DNA of 56,088 nucleotides from a bacterium (GCA_021812365.1 JAKANQ010000003.1:1-56088); one strand, 5' to 3'; shown: positions 5,069 through 40,546, counted from the first letter of the stretch. Notes: generated from the sequence alone by a model not told the origin. Translations and numbers: made by a program.

Positions 5069-8047
5069 ATGCACGACGAAGAATTCAAAAAGCGATATGC
5101 CGCATTGAACGCGGCGCAAAAGGAGGCGGTCGATGCGATTGAGGGACCCGTGATGGTGGTTGCCGGTCCGGGCACCGGTAAAACGCAGATATTGACGCTT
5201 CGCATCGCGAATATTTTGAAAAATGCCGATGTGAATCCGGAGAATATCTTGGCACTCACATTCACCGAGGCTGGCGCCACCAATATGAGGAAGCGTCTTG
5301 TTGATATCATCAGCACCCCCGCCTATTCGGTCATCATCAGCACCTTTCACGGGTTTTGTAATTCGATCATACGCGACTATCCCGAGGAGTTTCCTCATAT
5401 CATCGGTTCCGAGAGCATCACTGACGTTGAACAGATATCACTCATAGAGGACATCATTCAAGAGGGGGAATTCGCCATTCTAAGACCGTTCGGCGATCCG
5501 TTCTATTATACGCGGACCGTCTTGTCCGCGATCAACAATTTGAAGCGTGAGGGAGTGGATCCTGACGCGTTTCTTGCGATAGTGAATAAGGAAAAGAAGC
5601 GATTTGATGAATCGCCCGATCTCTACCATGAGAAGGGGCCGCATAAAGGCAAGATGCGCGGAGAGTATCAGGAGGAATTGAAGAGAATCAACAAGAATAT
5701 CGAGCTTACGGACCTCTATCGCACATATGAGACGCGTCTTCGCGAGAATAAATTGTATGATTACGCGGATATGATAATGGAGGTTCTTCGCACGCTTCAG
5801 AAAAACAAGGACATCCTCCTCATTTTGCAGGAGAAGTATCAGTACATCCTCGTTGATGAGCATCAGGATACCAACAATGCGCAAAACGGAATATTGGAGC
5901 TCCTGTGCAATTTCCACGAGAATCCGAATATATTCGTGGTGGGCGATGAGAAGCAGGCCATCTTCAAATTCCAAGGTGCCTCGCTTGAAAACTTCCTCTA
6001 TTTTAAGAAGGCGTATCCTGAAGCGAAGCTCGTCATATTAGAGGAGAATTATCGTTCAACTCAGCATATTCTCGATTCAGCACATTCGTTGATTCCGGGT
6101 AAGCGCGAGCTTATTGCCCGCGCGCACCATGAGAATGCGCGTATTCGTCTTTTTGCGTTCTCTCGTTCCGACGTTGAGGCGTATTTCATTGGGGCGGACA
6201 TTCGAAAGAAGATCGATTCGGGAACCCCACCCAACGAGATTGCGGTGCTGTATCGGGATAATGCGGATTCGATTGCTTTGGTGAGAATGTTGGAACGAAT
6301 CGGTATTCCTTTTACCGTGGAATCGAACGACAGCGTACTTCGCGACAATGATATACGAAAACTTCTTGCGTTGTTGCGTGCGGTAAGTGAATTCGGTAAC
6401 GACCGTTATGTGGCTGAGGCGATGCATGTTGATTTTTTGAAACTTGATGTGCTTGATGTCTATAAGGTGATAGCCGAAGCCGGAATGAAGAAGGTGTCCA
6501 TCTATGACGTATTGCGCTCTGATGCCGCCATTCGCGCACTTTTGTTGAATGATGAGAGGGGCCTTCGTCATTTTTACGGCGTACTGTCCGAGTTGGCAGT
6601 TGCCTCGAAAAATAAAGGTCTCCAGGAATTTTTCAGTGATTTCATACGCACGATAGGATTCATGTCACATATTCTTGCGCTTCCCGATGCGGTGGAAAAG
6701 ATGGAAAAATTGAATGGGTTCTATGACGAGATACAAAAGGTGACCGAGCGGCATCCCAATAAGACGCTGAAGGAATTCCTTGAGCATATCGACACGATTG
6801 AGACGCACAATTTGAATATAGAAAAAAGTTCTTTCGGCGGCACGACAAATCGCGTACGCCTTATGACCGCGCATAAGTCGAAAGGATTGGAGTTTGAGCA
6901 CGTGTATATCGCGGGCGCGTTCGATGGGCACTGGGGAAACAAGACAAGGAGGGAATCTCTCAAGTTGCCTCGCGTGGTGTTCGCATCACTCAATGAGACC
7001 GGTTCGGATGACCCGCTTGATGATGAACGCAGATTATTCTATGTTGCGCTCACCCGAGCCAAGAAGACCGTGACCGTTTCTTACGCAAAGGAGAGCATAT
7101 CGGGGAAGGAGCAATTGCCATCCGTCTTTTTGGGTGAGATGCGCGCCGAGTTGTTGGAAGAACAACGAGCGGATGAGATTGAGTCTGAATTCGCATCAAA
7201 TAAGGGAATCGTGTTCGCCGAACCGCAAGTGGTATCGGCGAGTGCGAATGATGCGGCATTCATTCGCGAGCTCTTCTTGCATCGAGGATTTTCCGCAACA
7301 TCGCTTAATAACTATCTCAGCTGCCCATGGAAATATTTCTATCAGAATCTTTTGAGGATTCCGGCCGCAAAGACAGGGCATCTTATGTTCGGTACCGCGG
7401 TTCATGGAGCACTTCAGGATTTCTTCAATGAGGTGAGTGAGGGCAAGAACGCCTCAAAGGAATTCCTGCTTCAAAGATTCATAGCTCATCTTGAACGCGA
7501 ATCATTCAGGGAAGAGGAGATTGTTGAGTGGAAAAAGAGGGGCGAACACGCTCTTGCGGGATATTATGACGAATATGCAGGCCGCTTCGCGACCAATGTA
7601 AGAACGGAATTGGATATAAAAGGGATCTTGCTTACTCCTGAGATCAAACTTTCCGGAAAGATAGATAAGCTGGAAATTTTAAATGAAAAGAACGAGGTGA
7701 ATGTGGTCGACTACAAGACCGGTAAACCGAAATCGCGCGGCGATATAGAGGGGTCCACGAAGAATTCCGATGGCGATATAAAGCGTCAACTCGTGTTCTA
7801 CAATTTATTGCTCAATAACTACGAGGACGCTCGATATAAGATGATATCCGCCGATGTCGATTTCGTTGAACCGACGGAAAGCGGGAAGTACAAAAAGGAA
7901 CCGTTCACCATCCTTGAGGAAGAAGTCAAGGAATTGGAAGGGGTGATACGGAAATCCGCGGATGAATTATTGTCGCTTTCGTTCTGGAATTCGCGCTGCG
8001 AGGACGAAACATGTGAGTTTTGCGAATTGCGTGAAATGATGGGGTAA
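5069..8047 (+). CDS. UvrD/PcrA-family helicase fused to a C-terminal PD-(D/E)XK nuclease
   Basis: AGPGTGKT, VDEHQD, VGDEKQAI, NYRST, TAHKSKGLEF, YVALTRAK; C-terminal SATSL..Y..CP, GKIDKL, VDYKTG, C..C..C. Confidence 0.92.
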   Translation: MHDEEFKKRYAALNAAQKEAVDAIEGPVMVVAGPGTGKTQILTLRIANILKNADVNPENILALTFTEAGATNMRKRLVDIISTPAYSVIISTFHGFCNSIIRDYPEEFPHIIGSESITDVEQISLIEDIIQEGEFAILRPFGDPFYYTRTVLSAINNLKREGVDPDAFLAIVNKEKKRFDESPDLYHEKGPHKGKMRGEYQEELKRINKNIELTDLYRTYETRLRENKLYDYADMIMEVLRTLQKNKDILLILQEKYQYILVDEHQDTNNAQNGILELLCNFHENPNIFVVGDEKQAIFKFQGASLENFLYFKKAYPEAKLVILEENYRSTQHILDSAHSLIPGKRELIARAHHENARIRLFAFSRSDVEAYFIGADIRKKIDSGTPPNEIAVLYRDNADSIALVRMLERIGIPFTVESNDSVLRDNDIRKLLALLRAVSEFGNDRYVAEAMHVDFLKLDVLDVYKVIAEAGMKKVSIYDVLRSDAAIRALLLNDERGLRHFYGVLSELAVASKNKGLQEFFSDFIRTIGFMSHILALPDAVEKMEKLNGFYDEIQKVTERHPNKTLKEFLEHIDTIETHNLNIEKSSFGGTTNRVRLMTAHKSKGLEFEHVYIAGAFDGHWGNKTRRESLKLPRVVFASLNETGSDDPLDDERRLFYVALTRAKKTVTVSYAKESISGKEQLPSVFLGEMRAELLEEQRADEIESEFASNKGIVFAEPQVVSASANDAAFIRELFLHRGFSATSLNNYLSCPWKYFYQNLLRIPAAKTGHLMFGTAVHGALQDFFNEVSEGKNASKEFLLQRFIAHLERESFREEEIVEWKKRGEHALAGYYDEYAGRFATNVRTELDIKGILLTPEIKLSGKIDKLEILNEKNEVNVVDYKTGKPKSRGDIEGSTKNSDGDIKRQLVFYNLLLNNYEDARYKMISADVDFVEPTESGKYKKEPFTILEEEVKELEGVIRKSADELLSLSFWNSRCEDETCEFCELREMMG

Positions 8048-36143: not shown

Positions 36144-36170
36144 ATAAAACTCCCGCAAAATGCGGGGATT

Positions 36171-36332
36171 CTCTTGTGCCCCCACAGGAAGAGTACTTCC
36201 GTGGTGGCACTGCGTTCGGAAATACGAATATGCTCTCTTGTGCCCCCTCAAGCGGAGTACCGCGTGAGGGCACTGCGTTCGGAAATAAAAAAACACCTAC
36301 TGGCGTTTTTTAATTTCCTCTCTTGTGCCCCC
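36171..36332 (-). repeat. Trailer repeats of tRNA-Lys: two 64-nt-period hairpin units, each ending in a copy of the tRNA 3' end
   Basis: CTCTTGTGCCCC at 36171, 36235 and 36320; GGCACTGCGTTCGGAAATA twice; stems differ but keep pairing. Confidence 0.8.
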
Positions 36333-36397
36333 ACTAGGATTTGAACCTAGAACCAACTGCTTAAGAGGCAGCTGCTCTACCGTTGAGCTATAGGGGC
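36326..36397 (-). tRNA. tRNA-Lys (CTT)
   Basis: GCCCCTA/TGGGGGC acceptor, loop CTCTTAA, TTCAAAT T-loop; no encoded CCA. Confidence 0.95.
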
Positions 36398-36458
36398 CCT
36401 TTGGATTTTTACTATATCCAATTCCACTTCGAAAATCAAACAATTCTGCTCTACCTAT

Positions 36459-36639
36459 TGTGCCCCCGGAGGGATTCTCCCGCGCCTCTCACCTCGCCGC
36501 CGCTCGGTTCGGGCTGGGCACCAACTCGCGGCGCATTCTACTGAATGCGCATCGCTCCGTTGTTCGACTCCCTCACACACGCAAATAAATTTGCGTGTTC
36601 GGGCGCACGCGCTGCGCTTATGTGCCCCCGGAGGGATTC
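36459..36639 (-). repeat. 19-bp duplication of the tRNA-Arg 3' end flanking a 143-bp structured insert
   Basis: TGTGCCCCCGGAGGGATTC at 36459-36477 and 36621-36639. Confidence 0.8.
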
Positions 36640-36694
36640 GAACCCCCAATAACAGGTTCGAAGCCTGTCGTGATATCCATTTCACCACAGGGGC
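36623..36694 (-). tRNA. tRNA-Arg (TCG)
   Basis: GCCCCTG/CGGGGGC acceptor, ACAGG-CTTCGAA-CCTGT, TTCGAAT T-loop; no encoded CCA. Confidence 0.95.
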
Positions 36695-36765
36695 AGATAT
36701 CAAACGTATTGTAATGGATTTTCAGGAAAAAGGAACCCCGCACGAGGCGGGGTTCCTTATCACTC

Positions 36766-37089
36766 CTATGAATTCAATTTGAATGGGGGGTACTTATCGG
36801 TGAGTCCGAATATATATGAATTCACACGCAGTTTCCAACGGAGCAGTCCTTTCACAATATCAAAGATGCCATGAGGATATTTACCCGTGAAGAGCACTGC
36901 GAATTGTGCAAATATACCGAGGATGATGCTTAAAAATGAGAGGAAGTAGAGCGCGAGGAAGTGAGGAATAAGAATGAAGAATTTCGGTATCAAAAAAAGG
37001 AGGGTGCCGGCCGCAAGCAACCGCGAGGACTTCTCGGGATGCTCAATTATGATGTCGACGTGATTAGTTGATTCATGTGCGTGTTCCAT
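36766..37089 (-). CDS. DUF4389-like membrane protein
   Basis: LIPHF, FAVLFTGKYP.GIFD...G.LRW..RV.SY..GLTDKYPPF. Confidence 0.8.
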   Translation of the reverse strand: MEHAHESTNHVDIIIEHPEKSSRLLAAGTLLFLIPKFFILIPHFLALYFLSFLSIILGIFAQFAVLFTGKYPHGIFDIVKGLLRWKLRVNSYIFGLTDKYPPFKLNS

Positions 37090-37161
37090 AATGCATTCAT
37101 TATACCATGCGCCACATGGCAATTTCATTTTTATGACGGGTAGATTACACTAAATATAGCT

Positions 37162-38664
37162 ATGAAAACCAAGATTCCCGCTGAAATAGAGGATATTGCG
37201 CGCATTCTGTCCGATGCGGGTTTTGAGGCATATCTTGTGGGCGGTTCCTTGCGGGACATGCTTTTGGGAGTTTCGCCCAAGGATTGGGATATTGCGACGA
37301 ATGCCACACCCGAAGAGACACAGAAACTTTTTGCCACCTATGGCGGACGCACGTTGGAAGACCCCGCTACGGTGTACGAGAACTCATTTGGAACGGTGGG
37401 AATAAAGACCGAATCGAAAGATGAATCGTTGAAGATAGTTGAGGTGACCACGTTCCGCGTGGAGGGCAAGTATACCGATAAGAGGCATCCTGATGAAGTT
37501 CAATTCGCAAAGACGGTCGAGGAGGACTTGAGCCGCAGGGATTTCACCATAAATGCGATTGCCTTCAATCTTGCGAATCACTCGCTTTCCAAATCCCACC
37601 TTGTTGACCCATTCAATGGGATGGATGATCTGCAGAAGAAATCATTGCGTACGGTGGGCGACCCCAACAAGCGATTCGAGGAAGACGCGCTTCGTCTTAT
37701 GCGCGCCGTCCGATTTGCGGCACAGCTTGGTTTTGAGATAGAGCACCAGACCATGAATGCAGTGAAAGAAAACGCCGGACTTTTGGATGTGATCGCGAAG
37801 GAAAGGATTCGCGATGAATTTTCAAAACTTATCATGACTCCGCGCGCCGCGATGGGGATAGTGATGATGGAGGACATGGGACTTTTGAAATTTGTGATTC
37901 CGGAACTCCGCGAGGGTATCGCGTGCGGGCAGAACAAGCATCACATCTATACGGTATTCGACCATAACGTGCGCGCGTTGAATTACACCGCGGAAAAGGA
38001 GTATTCATTCGTGGTTCGCATGGCCTCGCTTCTGCATGATGTGGGAAAGCCGCGCACCAAGGGGGGCGATGGTCCCGATTCGACGTTCTACAACCACGAG
38101 GTGGTAGGCGCTCGGATGGCCGTGAAGATATTGGACAGGTTGAGATTCTCAAAGGAGCATATCGAGAAGATATCGCATCTTGTGCGGTGGCATCTCTTTT
38201 ACTACAACGTGGGCGAGGTGACGGAAGCGGGCGTGCGGCGTTTCTTAAGCCGTGTAGGCTTGGAAAATGTCGATGACCTTTTGAAGGTGCGTGAGGCGGA
38301 TAGAATCGGTTCGGGCGTGCCGAAAGCATTTCCGTACAAGCTGCGCCACTTACTCTTCATGATAGACAAAGTGAAGAACGACCCCATTAGTCCGAAAATG
38401 GTGAAGTTGAACGGTGACGAGTTGATGAAGGAGCTTCAATTAACGCCGAGCAGAAAGGTGGGATATATTCTCTCCATCCTTTTGGAGGATGTGATTCAGG
38501 ATCCTGCGAAGAATGAGAAGGAATATCTCATCGCGCGCGCGAAAGAACTGAATGTGTTTGATGATGTGGAGCTGTCTGCAATGGCTGATAAGGCAAAGGA
38601 GCATGCCGATGAGTTTGAGGAGGGCATTGAGAGGGAGATGAAGAAGAAGCATAAGGTGGCATAA
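37162..38664 (+). CDS. cca: CCA-adding tRNA nucleotidyltransferase with HD domain
   Basis: YLVGGSLRD, DWDIAT, DLSRRDFTINA, RFEEDALRLMRAVRF, ERIRDE, LLHDVGKP, FYNHE. Confidence 0.88.
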   Translation: MKTKIPAEIEDIARILSDAGFEAYLVGGSLRDMLLGVSPKDWDIATNATPEETQKLFATYGGRTLEDPATVYENSFGTVGIKTESKDESLKIVEVTTFRVEGKYTDKRHPDEVQFAKTVEEDLSRRDFTINAIAFNLANHSLSKSHLVDPFNGMDDLQKKSLRTVGDPNKRFEEDALRLMRAVRFAAQLGFEIEHQTMNAVKENAGLLDVIAKERIRDEFSKLIMTPRAAMGIVMMEDMGLLKFVIPELREGIACGQNKHHIYTVFDHNVRALNYTAEKEYSFVVRMASLLHDVGKPRTKGGDGPDSTFYNHEVVGARMAVKILDRLRFSKEHIEKISHLVRWHLFYYNVGEVTEAGVRRFLSRVGLENVDDLLKVREADRIGSGVPKAFPYKLRHLLFMIDKVKNDPISPKMVKLNGDELMKELQLTPSRKVGYILSILLEDVIQDPAKNEKEYLIARAKELNVFDDVELSAMADKAKEHADEFEEGIEREMKKKHKVA

Positions 38665-38713
38665 TATGCTTTTCAGCCCAAAGTAAAAACGCGTCGAAAC
38701 GCGTTTTATCTTG

Positions 38714-38784
38714 TCGGGCTGCTGGGAATCGAACCCAGTCTACACGCACCCGAAGCGTGCGTACTACCGGTATACTACAGCCCG
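38714..38784 (-). tRNA. tRNA-Pro (CGG)
   Basis: CGGGCTG/CAGCCCG acceptor, CACGC-TTCGGGT-GCGTG, TTCGATT T-loop; no encoded CCA. Confidence 0.95.
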
Positions 38785-38790
38785 TAGAGA

Positions 38791-38942
38791 GGAGCAAAAT
38801 GAACAGTAGGTTCATTTTGTCCGAACGACCGGGATGCAACCTTCTGAGGTTGTAGAGCCCGAATGGAGAAGTAAGCTTCTACTTACAGTCCGAAGTGTTT
38901 TGTCCGAATGCCTGAGGAGTAAGCCTTCGCTTATGGTCCAAA
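38791..38942. repeat. Array of four hairpins with GGR...YCC(G/A)AA closure next to the tRNA-Pro 5' end
   Basis: Units 38791-38826, 38831-38863, 38865-38894, 38916-38942; extra TCCGAA at 38903. Confidence 0.65.
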
Positions 38943-39000
38943 GTGCCTATATACTGTATATGAGTTCCAAAAATTAGTAAATAATGGATAATAAATAGAC

Positions 39001-40408: not shown

Positions 40409-40479
40409 GGGCCTGTAGTAAAGTGGTATTACGCGGCATTCGCATTGCCGAGTCGCGAGTTCGATTCTCGCCAGGTCCA
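40409..40479 (+). tRNA. tRNA-Ala (CGC)
   Basis: GGGCCTG/CAGGTCC acceptor with G3:U70, CGGCA-TTCGCAT-TGCCG; no encoded CCA. Confidence 0.95.
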
Positions 40480-40546
40480 CAAAGTAAAAACTCCGCGAAA
40501 GCGGAGTTTTTATCATGTCTCATAAGTAAAAGCGTATAATGAGTAT

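Follow-up and report, generated by a model that had tools for sequence, protein, structure and literature searches.

Small structured DNA elements matched to the ends of tRNA genes in Patescibacteria

Background

Folded inserts adjoin the ends of three tRNA genes in a 56,088-nucleotide (nt) stretch of bacterial DNA (GCA_021812365.1, JAKANQ010000003.1:1-56088; this whole stretch is called the window in the following), and they bear likeness to several described systems. Integrase-driven tRNA islands and prophages (T-loop class) as well as cis-mobilizable elements (CIMEs) likewise duplicate the tRNA 3' end, from the T-loop on, as a direct repeat; the element supplies a replacement end together with a terminator, and the old end stays on the original flank. 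In CTX-phi and the XerCD-exploiting integrative mobile elements (IMEX), two inverted target-like copies fold and thereby present the target as a duplex (folded single-stranded attP, the phage attachment site); direct repeats remain after integration and the enzyme is supplied by the host. The bridge RNA of IS110/IS1111 is a structured non-coding RNA of similar size, in which short target-matched stretches program the insertion site. Repetitive extragenic palindromes (REP) and bacterial interspersed mosaic elements (BIME) with their REP-associated tyrosine transposases (RAYT), and the palindrome-associated transposable elements (PATEs) of IS200/IS605, are short, gene-less intergenic hairpins thought to be moved in trans via single-stranded hairpins. 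MITEs (miniature transposable elements with inverted repeats), including the Rickettsia palindromic elements, are small, non-autonomous and dispersed, sometimes inside conserved genes, and a 9-nt duplication as found in one of the families below is a common length of target-site duplications. A full-text literature search retrieved no description of elements such as those reported here.

The three regions of the window most likely represent copies of small (about 65-190 nt) structured insertion elements, some intact, some in tandem and some decayed. They follow one layout with gene-end copies and complements matched to the host tRNA, their stems covary, their cores recur at unrelated tRNAs and their junctions are exact. 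They strictly adjoin tRNA ends, sites are found precisely empty as well as filled, and the number of units changes between near-identical strains. Such target-matched mini-elements are widespread in ultra-small bacteria (Patescibacteria).

Results

Layout of the elements

Four tRNA genes were called in the window by ARAGORN and Rfam, and none of them (0/4) encodes its CCA end, as the earlier note on this DNA, made from the sequence alone, had said of the first three:

36325-36397, minus strand: tRNA-Lys(CTT), 74 bits with the Rfam tRNA model, bearing an array of M-T units at its 3' end
36622-36694, minus strand: tRNA-Arg(TCG)
38713-38784, minus strand: tRNA-Pro(CGG)
40409-40480, plus strand: tRNA-Ala(CGC)

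Two families of elements are present in the window, M-T (5' end of tRNA-Pro, 3' end of tRNA-Lys) and type A (the insert behind tRNA-Arg). Their common layout runs outward from the working gene end through a terminator-like hairpin spacer, a complement of the gene end (X') and a folded core to a displaced copy of the gene end (X), with X' and X pairing to form a closing helix. This full layout is found in the Arg insert, in the M-T units and in a third family, type B, from a sister contig. The key feature, which the earlier note had not stressed, is the direct repetition of tRNA gene ends: GGGGGCACAAGAGA occurs three times 3' of tRNA-Lys, GAATCCCTCCGGGGGCACA twice around the Arg insert, and degenerate copies of the tRNA-Pro 5' end (CGGGCTNTA) lie upstream of tRNA-Pro. 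The element region is identical across four independent assemblies and was also found in four metagenome sequencing runs.

Covariance models were built for the M-T unit of Lys and Pro (R2) and for type A (R3). Numbers with the prefix L denote fetched related or metagenome loci, the loci of relatives having been fetched via the gene of the CCA-adding enzyme (cca).

The M-T family

M-T units duplicate the outermost about 9 nt of the gene. Toward the gene they read X, a short core hairpin, X', CGYTCGGA, an A/T-rich hairpin and CTCC..CTT, the latter flush with the working gene; X' comprises 3-5 nt, and 9-11 nt in the Lys units. In the window, the following parts were assigned:

38785-38865, minus strand: intact M-T unit in the 5' leader of tRNA-Pro (R2, 77 bits; 1 nt from the tRNA 5' end)
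38866-38945, minus strand: older, decayed Pro units (repeat D5, 75 % identity; from reading of the sequence)
36276-36324, minus strand: T module adjoining the 3' end of tRNA-Lys, made up of AAGAGAGG, an A/T-rich hairpin of 17 bp (36281-36318, loop AGTA) and CCGAACG
36234-36273, minus strand: Lys M unit U1 (X' GTGCCCTCA, core CGCGG-TACT-CCGC, X TGAGGGGGCAC)
36170-36232, minus strand: older Lys unit U2 (truncated T at 36213-36232, M hairpin at 36176-36210)
36150-36167: bidirectional intrinsic terminator at the boundary of panD and the Lys array, called by the terminator consensus scan

All strings quoted in the earlier note were found in the window sequence. The pattern AGAGAGGA...CAGTAGG...TCCGAACG indeed lies directly 3' of tRNA-Lys (36276-36324, minus strand), and its second copy (38785-38827, plus strand) adjoins the 5' end of tRNA-Pro. 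Over the 56 kb, AGAGAGGA occurs twice and TCCGAACG three times, every time within these tRNA-side regions. tRNA-Pro itself had been placed on the plus strand; according to ARAGORN and Rfam it lies on the minus strand, and 38785-38945 is therefore its 5' leader.

In the tRNA sense, the intact Pro unit consists of the old leader CATT, X (CGGGCTCTA, i.e., tRNA nt 1-9 with one mismatch), the hairpin CAACCT-CAGA-AGGTTG, GCAT, X' (CCCGG), CGTTCGGA, the T hairpin and CTCCTCTCTA, followed directly by the tRNA. The decayed units comprise, from the outermost inward, CACTT, TGGACCATA and a hairpin (38945-38911), a T remnant with deleted hairpin (CATTCGGACAAAA, 38910-38898) and again CACTT, CGGACTGTA and a hairpin (38897-38866). 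Thus, the gene-proximal unit of this array is intact and decay progresses with distance from the gene.

The Lys unit matches R2 on the plus strand (36236-36324, 50 bits, 1 nt from the tRNA end) and is hence inverted relative to its tRNA. Unit U1 closes with the repeat GGGGGCACAAGAGA (36234-36247), of which a third copy is located at 36170-36183 in U2, where the M stem differs yet still pairs (GGAAG-TACT-CTTCC). The Lys T hairpin has the A-tract/T-tract shape of a bidirectional terminator and probably serves as such between the convergent panD and tRNA-Lys genes, even though the consensus scan did not call it. Its counterpart at tRNA-Pro resides inside the leader, where termination would be harmful.

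Model R2 recovered just two matches in the window, both at the places already named (E about 1e-17 and 1e-10) and each 1 nt from the tRNA end, a result well outside chance. In 692 kb of related loci (E < 0.01), 19 of 21 checked matches are located at a tRNA end (gap 0-6) or one to two units farther out in a tandem array; of the other two, one is a partial match on the reverse strand over a T hairpin and one lies beside a contig end. From 494 kb of independently fetched metagenome loci, four of five matches belong to arrays flush with the 5' ends of tRNA-Asp, tRNA-Ala and tRNA-Ile, and the flush units carry exact copies of tRNA nt 1-9, as the family also does at tRNA-Pro 5' ends; the Ile array accounts for two of these matches in tandem, the outer lying one unit upstream. 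A regex scan added a case at the 5' end of tRNA-Cys. Among 16 aligned units (Pro and Ala leaders, Lys trailers), compensatory changes were observed in 17 of 21 predicted pairs.

The CTCCTCTCT end of the Lys/Pro family is always positioned at the acceptor-stem end of the tRNA gene, whichever side this is. Since M-T follows the tRNA sense at 5' ends but is turned round at the Lys 3' end, the CTCC..CTT end always faces the acceptor-stem end, and the use of 5' ends with an exact 9-nt junction together with the inverted use of a 3' end makes the acceptor-stem end as DNA look like the common target.

The regions had been read as one family sharing an AGTA loop. Lys and Pro units do constitute one family, while the Arg insert belongs to type A and has only the layout in common with them. 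The count of five AGTA loops holds, but it mixes strands: when all are read in the direction leading away from the gene, AGTA stands in three and TACT in two. With strands mixed and T loops unconserved in relatives, AGTA was in part rejected as the family signature; conserved loops are limited to P2 of type A (AGYA) and to the TACT of the Lys M units.

Hairpins resembling T, with flanks CGCTCGGA...CCCTCGCTT and no tRNA detected beside them, occur in L259 (7911-7949), L307 (7119-7157) and L312 (992-1054) and may mark other targets or decayed sites. The M module was also considered as an internally deleted tRNA copy; this was rejected for Lys, where X' pairs beyond the acceptor stem too, and could still apply to Pro.

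Types A and B

In type A elements, a terminator-like spacer is followed by X' (complementary to T-loop and T-stem), then by a core of three helices with an AGYA loop and finally by the displaced old tRNA 3' end. The Arg insert of the window is of this type, with a 19-nt duplication from the T-loop through the 3' end:

36460-36576, minus strand: type A element proper (R3, 131 bits; as a training sequence of the model it has this score by construction)
36577-36620, minus strand: terminator-like Arg spacer, folding into two hairpins (36603-36617 and 36577-36598)

The near copy of the direct repeat corresponds to the last 19 nt of the tRNA (36621-36639), and the second copy, 162 nt downstream, is the displaced 3' end forming X (36459-36477). 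X' (GAGGGAGTCGAAC, 36562-36574) complements T-loop and T-stem of its own tRNA and forms the closing helix; for this insert, the previously noted pairing of CGAAC with the T-loop thus proved true. The core (36478-36561) contains the P2 hairpin GCGCATTC-AGTA-GAATGCGC (36531-36550) followed by the P3 region, and the two copies of GCCCGAAC reported along with this hairpin are located at 36514 and 36604. Within the spacer, the terminator consensus scan called 36610-36593. Interpretation of the insert as an antisense tRNA-like gene was abandoned, its T-arm and anticodon-like arms pairing inconsistently.

Seven type A copies (Arg, Lys and Pro trailers) share the three-helix fold with 24 of 33 pairs compensated. 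Metagenomes were scanned with a core pattern without reference to tRNAs and then with model R3, yielding 73 distinct copies. More than two thirds (54/73) lie downstream of a tRNA on the same strand (median 58 nt), representing 30 anticodon types, and in 38 of these 54 the copy agrees with the tRNA 3' end in 13 or more of 14 nt; among the remaining copies, 12 are too close to a contig edge to judge and 7 are at other targets. Paired cells amount to 92 % (about 40 % in slid controls), double-change cells number 467 versus 134 in shuffled data, and the P2 loop reads AGCA, AGTA or AGCT in 50 of the 73 copies.

Type A copies with no tRNA nearby were encountered in L327, L299, L268 and L267; the one in L327 (4208) is located behind sequence ending in TAA, possibly the end of a protein gene, and that in L267 ends tRNA-like (...GGGCTACCA). 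In sister contig L003 (5552-5732), a 181-nt insertion in the tRNA-Pro trailer is homologous to the Arg insert of the window and flanked by an exact 50-nt repeat of trailer and terminator. Its tRNA-end copy (GATTCCCATCATCTCAC) shows clustered mismatches to tRNA-Pro and may derive from another host tRNA.

Type B was found outside the window, in sister contig L001, where a 156-nt element (7320-7476) resides behind tRNA-Ala and consists of a terminator, a T-arm complement, the core GGGAAAGGGGTCGGG...GAGCGAC, which is conserved, and 16 nt copied from the end of the tRNA; the window has the terminator alone at this place. In this family, 18 of 20 matches are positioned 30-63 nt behind the tRNA whose end is copied, and 94.7 % of cells are paired.

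Empty and filled sites in relatives

Empty and filled alleles, suggested earlier as something to look for, exist for both the Arg trailer and the Pro leader. The Arg trailer is empty in L008 and L012 (...GGGGGCACA, then TTGATTG), retains a 36-nt remnant in L007 and carries the full 143-nt insert in L009 and the window; in every state, the distal repeat is joined to the original flank. L008 has one copy of the 63-nt Lys trailer unit, L007 and the window have two each, and L002 has three; the flanks of L007 and L008 are 99.6-99.97 % identical. The Pro leader is short and free of units in L005, and arrays are inserted between promoter and tRNA in L007 and the window.

Of the 277 tRNAs in the related loci, 48 are followed, within 400 nt, by a copy of their own 3' end (3.2 with non-cognate probes), and 28 are preceded by a copy of their own 5' end (5.6 in the control). 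The reverse arrangements were not enriched among these tRNAs. Distances between the 3' repeats have a sharp maximum at 100-200 nt and never exceed 1 kb for the 174 tRNAs with enough downstream sequence, which argues for a separate size class rather than random remnants of large islands.

Genomic context

The intergenic neighbourhood includes two further features:

37162-38664, plus strand: cca, encoding the CCA-adding enzyme (context, not part of the elements)
38686-38707: bidirectional terminator common to cca and tRNA-Pro (inverted repeat I22)

A connection of the elements with cca, as the earlier note had it, was not sustained. In most of 80 relatives, cca is found together with tRNA-Pro, tRNA-Arg and tRNA-Lys, and the order tRNA-Arg/Lys - cca - tRNA-Pro is conserved whether elements are present or absent; adjacency to cca thus reflects inherited gene order. 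The whole tRNA-Pro cassette (promoter, leader, tRNA and terminator; 38686-39000 in the window) was compared with L005, L007, L013, L015 and L018 and is inverted relative to several relatives, including L005 and L007. An inversion of tRNA-Pro alone, mediated by the acceptor stem, was rejected, since promoter and terminator are inverted too. The orientations of tRNA-Lys, tRNA-Arg and tRNA-Pro differ in almost every related species, suggesting that tRNA cassettes often flip in place.

Just upstream of tRNA-Lys, a promoter-like site (TTGATT-17 nt-TATAGT; 36411-36439, minus strand) is conserved in relatives. A promoter of its own is therefore probable for tRNA-Lys, which places the Arg element between two transcription units. 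Some related genomes (L180 and L195) encode CCA on tRNA-Lys (...GGGGGCACCA), unlike the tRNAs of the window. Past the distal Arg repeat, the window has ATAGGTAGAGCAGAA (36443-36458) where relatives have TTGA; ten bases of this stretch (GGTAGAGCAG) correspond to part of the D-arm of tRNA-Lys, and 11 bases are missing from some contigs in two sequencing runs. Identity between L001 and the window is 99.9 % as far as tRNA-Ala (about 40480) and 86 % past it; L009 and L008 share 88 % identity on one side of the tRNA-Lys/Arg cluster and 98 % on the other. Such abrupt shifts at tRNAs represent either recombination breakpoints or strain-switching during metagenome assembly.

Search for known classes of elements

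Neither the expected HUH or integrase gene nor a reverse transcriptase domain was found in 40 of 49 open reading frames (ORFs) of the window searched against Pfam (two small ORFs were left unchecked) or among the annotated genes of the fetched loci. Rfam 15 at a permissive threshold returned tRNAs only, both in the window region and in seven related loci with types A, B and M-T. Related full-length islands with an integrase did not turn up at the same sites: the 3' repeats are 100-200 nt apart and the window ORFs scanned contain no integrase.

The REP-like, HUH-dependent reading of the earlier note was not supported: a conserved GTAG foot is absent, the stems are unconserved and the 56 kb contain two model matches, both at tRNA ends. 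Of the REP foot (5' GTAG/GTGG), GTAG occurs solely within the CAGTAGG loop of the two window T hairpins, and relatives have CAGCAGG, TCGC, GAAAC and others at this place. Identity with MITEs was likewise rejected: M-T lacks terminal inverted repeats and, despite the 9-nt duplication, its internal X' changes with the host tRNA.

Viral contigs were searched with two exact patterns of 15-16 nt. The first gave 31 matches attributable to chance, mostly in G+C-rich contigs and none near a tRNA; the matches listed for the second were about as numerous as chance predicts. Joints detected in the short contigs of metagenome runs came from co-occurring relatives and short unitigs and do not prove excision.

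Discussion

Probable insertion matched to the target

The findings probably reflect small, protein-less, target-matched insertion elements at the ends of tRNA genes. The earlier suggestion of non-autonomous elements is retained herewith, in that the units behave as target-matched and not as fixed repeats. Entry would occur within the terminal 9-20 nt of the gene, and the observed pattern would result if a small circular form, probably single-stranded, underwent Campbell-type recombination. Along with a new gene end, the element would bring in a terminator or leader and displace the old end outward. The X':X helix could serve as address, with the conserved core docking an enzyme encoded elsewhere. 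Arrays may gain units by re-insertion or unequal crossing-over and lose them again through repeat-mediated deletion; transcribed units would be removed as leader or trailer, and the Lys T hairpin would double as terminator. That M-T is flipped with respect to transcription favours the view that it is recognised as DNA. More tentatively, one may speculate that the elements are addressed by nucleic acid, the core docking an outside enzyme and the X':X helix specifying the entry site by its sequence. On the same tentative footing, either end of a tRNA gene might be usable (9-nt junction for M-T, T-loop for type A) and retargeting might take few nucleotides, which would make this a self-addressed kind of site-specific DNA insertion without a protein of its own.

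Several observations weigh against insertion. No enzyme, free or circular form, or de novo insertion was found in the loci and runs examined. Strain differences at the Arg site are explained most simply by decay and repeat-mediated loss (full to truncated to empty) and not by gain, and the extra Lys unit of L002 is an exact, plain tandem duplicate. M-T units reside at the same tRNAs across species whose cca proteins are 76-85 % identical, which points to mostly vertical inheritance and possibly to maintenance for a function. On the tRNA-sense strand, wobble pairs are biased toward G.U over A.C (65:36 in type A, 16:4 in type B), and this bias, taken with the conserved AGYA loop, is a hint that an RNA is under selection. 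A further difficulty for insertion lies in the re-matching of X' and of the replacement end on a new tRNA.

Alternative explanations

The main rival explanation regards the units as cis-acting RNA modules of the tRNA transcripts, which would imitate the acceptor end by their minihelix-like X:X' stems or else resemble the tRNA's top half. Such modules could direct RNase P, RNase Z or the CCA-adding enzyme or buffer their action, or they could be folding switches in which X' pairs with the real or the spare 3' end, and they would have spread by local duplication. We consider this rather improbable, albeit in agreement with the strong covariation, with the wobble bias and the AGYA loop being apparent in the tRNA sense, with Pro units lying within the leader transcript and Lys units within the trailer, with the retention of units at the same tRNAs across species and with the absence of encoded CCA from all the tRNAs concerned. 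The orientation of M-T is difficult to reconcile with it: units at Pro, Ala, Asp and Ile have the tRNA sense and those at Lys the opposite one, and a single RNA function could not be read from both strands. Moreover, a terminator-like hairpin separates the tRNA from types A and B, units are missing in near-identical strains, 7 of 73 type A copies have no nearby tRNA, and unrelated tRNAs share cores with re-matched ends, which local duplication cannot achieve.

Less well fitting, and unlikely, is an origin as scars or miniatures of integrase-driven tRNA islands, i.e., attL plus attR (the attachment sites left and right of an integrated element) with the interior deleted, or CIME-like units mobilised in trans. 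Direct repeats from T-loop to 3' end and a replacement gene end with terminator are the classic footprint of the T-loop class, and the 19-nt Arg repeat indeed flanks the insert with its distal copy on the original flank, as is also the case at tRNA-Ala when the window is compared with L001. Against this origin, repeats are spaced by 100-200 nt with none above 1 kb among 174 tRNAs, and the entire interior is a conserved, covarying fold over 30 tRNA types, so that as many integrase specificities would be needed. X' furthermore varies with the target, the M-T duplication comprises just 9 nt and affects 5' ends, and a recombinase domain is absent from the window ORFs scanned or annotated.

An origin without any dedicated element, in which replication or repair leaves such by-products at tRNA genes that are hairpin-rich and highly transcribed, fits less well than the main rival too and is very unlikely: template switching and snap-back synthesis around terminator palindromes could yield inverted and direct gene-end copies, in keeping with the long near-palindromes formed by tRNA end, terminator and inverted copy (L009 Lys), the frequent cassette flips between relatives, stems that appear rewritten yet paired and the abrupt identity changes at tRNAs, but spontaneous events would not remake the same conserved cores of 60-100 nt at many unrelated tRNAs in many genomes. 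The junctions are fixed, at nt 9 (M-T) or the T-loop (types A and B), and the models already point to common descent of the cores across sites.

Implications

If self-addressed insertion applies, the elements would represent mobile DNA outside the transposon, integron, intron and integrase classes, common in a large, poorly understood bacterial radiation and in principle reprogrammable. If they instead are RNA modules, they would form a previously unrecognised class of RNAs in tRNA leaders and trailers, imitating the end of the very tRNA they accompany. Under either reading, much hairpin-rich "junk" near Patescibacteria tRNA genes is explained, and the elements should be masked when att sites, islands or small RNAs are called.

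Comparison with known systems

Apart from the likenesses given at the outset, the elements differ from each of the described systems. In contrast to integrase islands and CIMEs, they measure 65-190 nt, are gene-less and have an interior made up of one conserved fold that includes the target's complement (X'); a single core recurs at 30 tRNA types, a 5'-end version with 9-nt duplication exists, and no integrase was found nearby. CTX-phi and IMEX use one fixed site (dif) for XerCD, whereas the sequence presented here is target-specific. In IS110/IS1111, the bridge RNA is located beside a recombinase gene in an element of 1.2-1.5 kb; here, no recombinase was found in the window ORFs scanned, and the matched stretch lies within the inserted DNA, beside the duplicated target. 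REPs are near-identical, numerous, not tied to gene ends and carry a GTAG foot, whereas the present elements have variable stems, are few over the 56 kb searched, match their tRNA and lie flush with it. MITEs, finally, contrast with the exact insertion position observed here and with the co-variation of X' with its target, which is impossible for a fixed MITE sequence.

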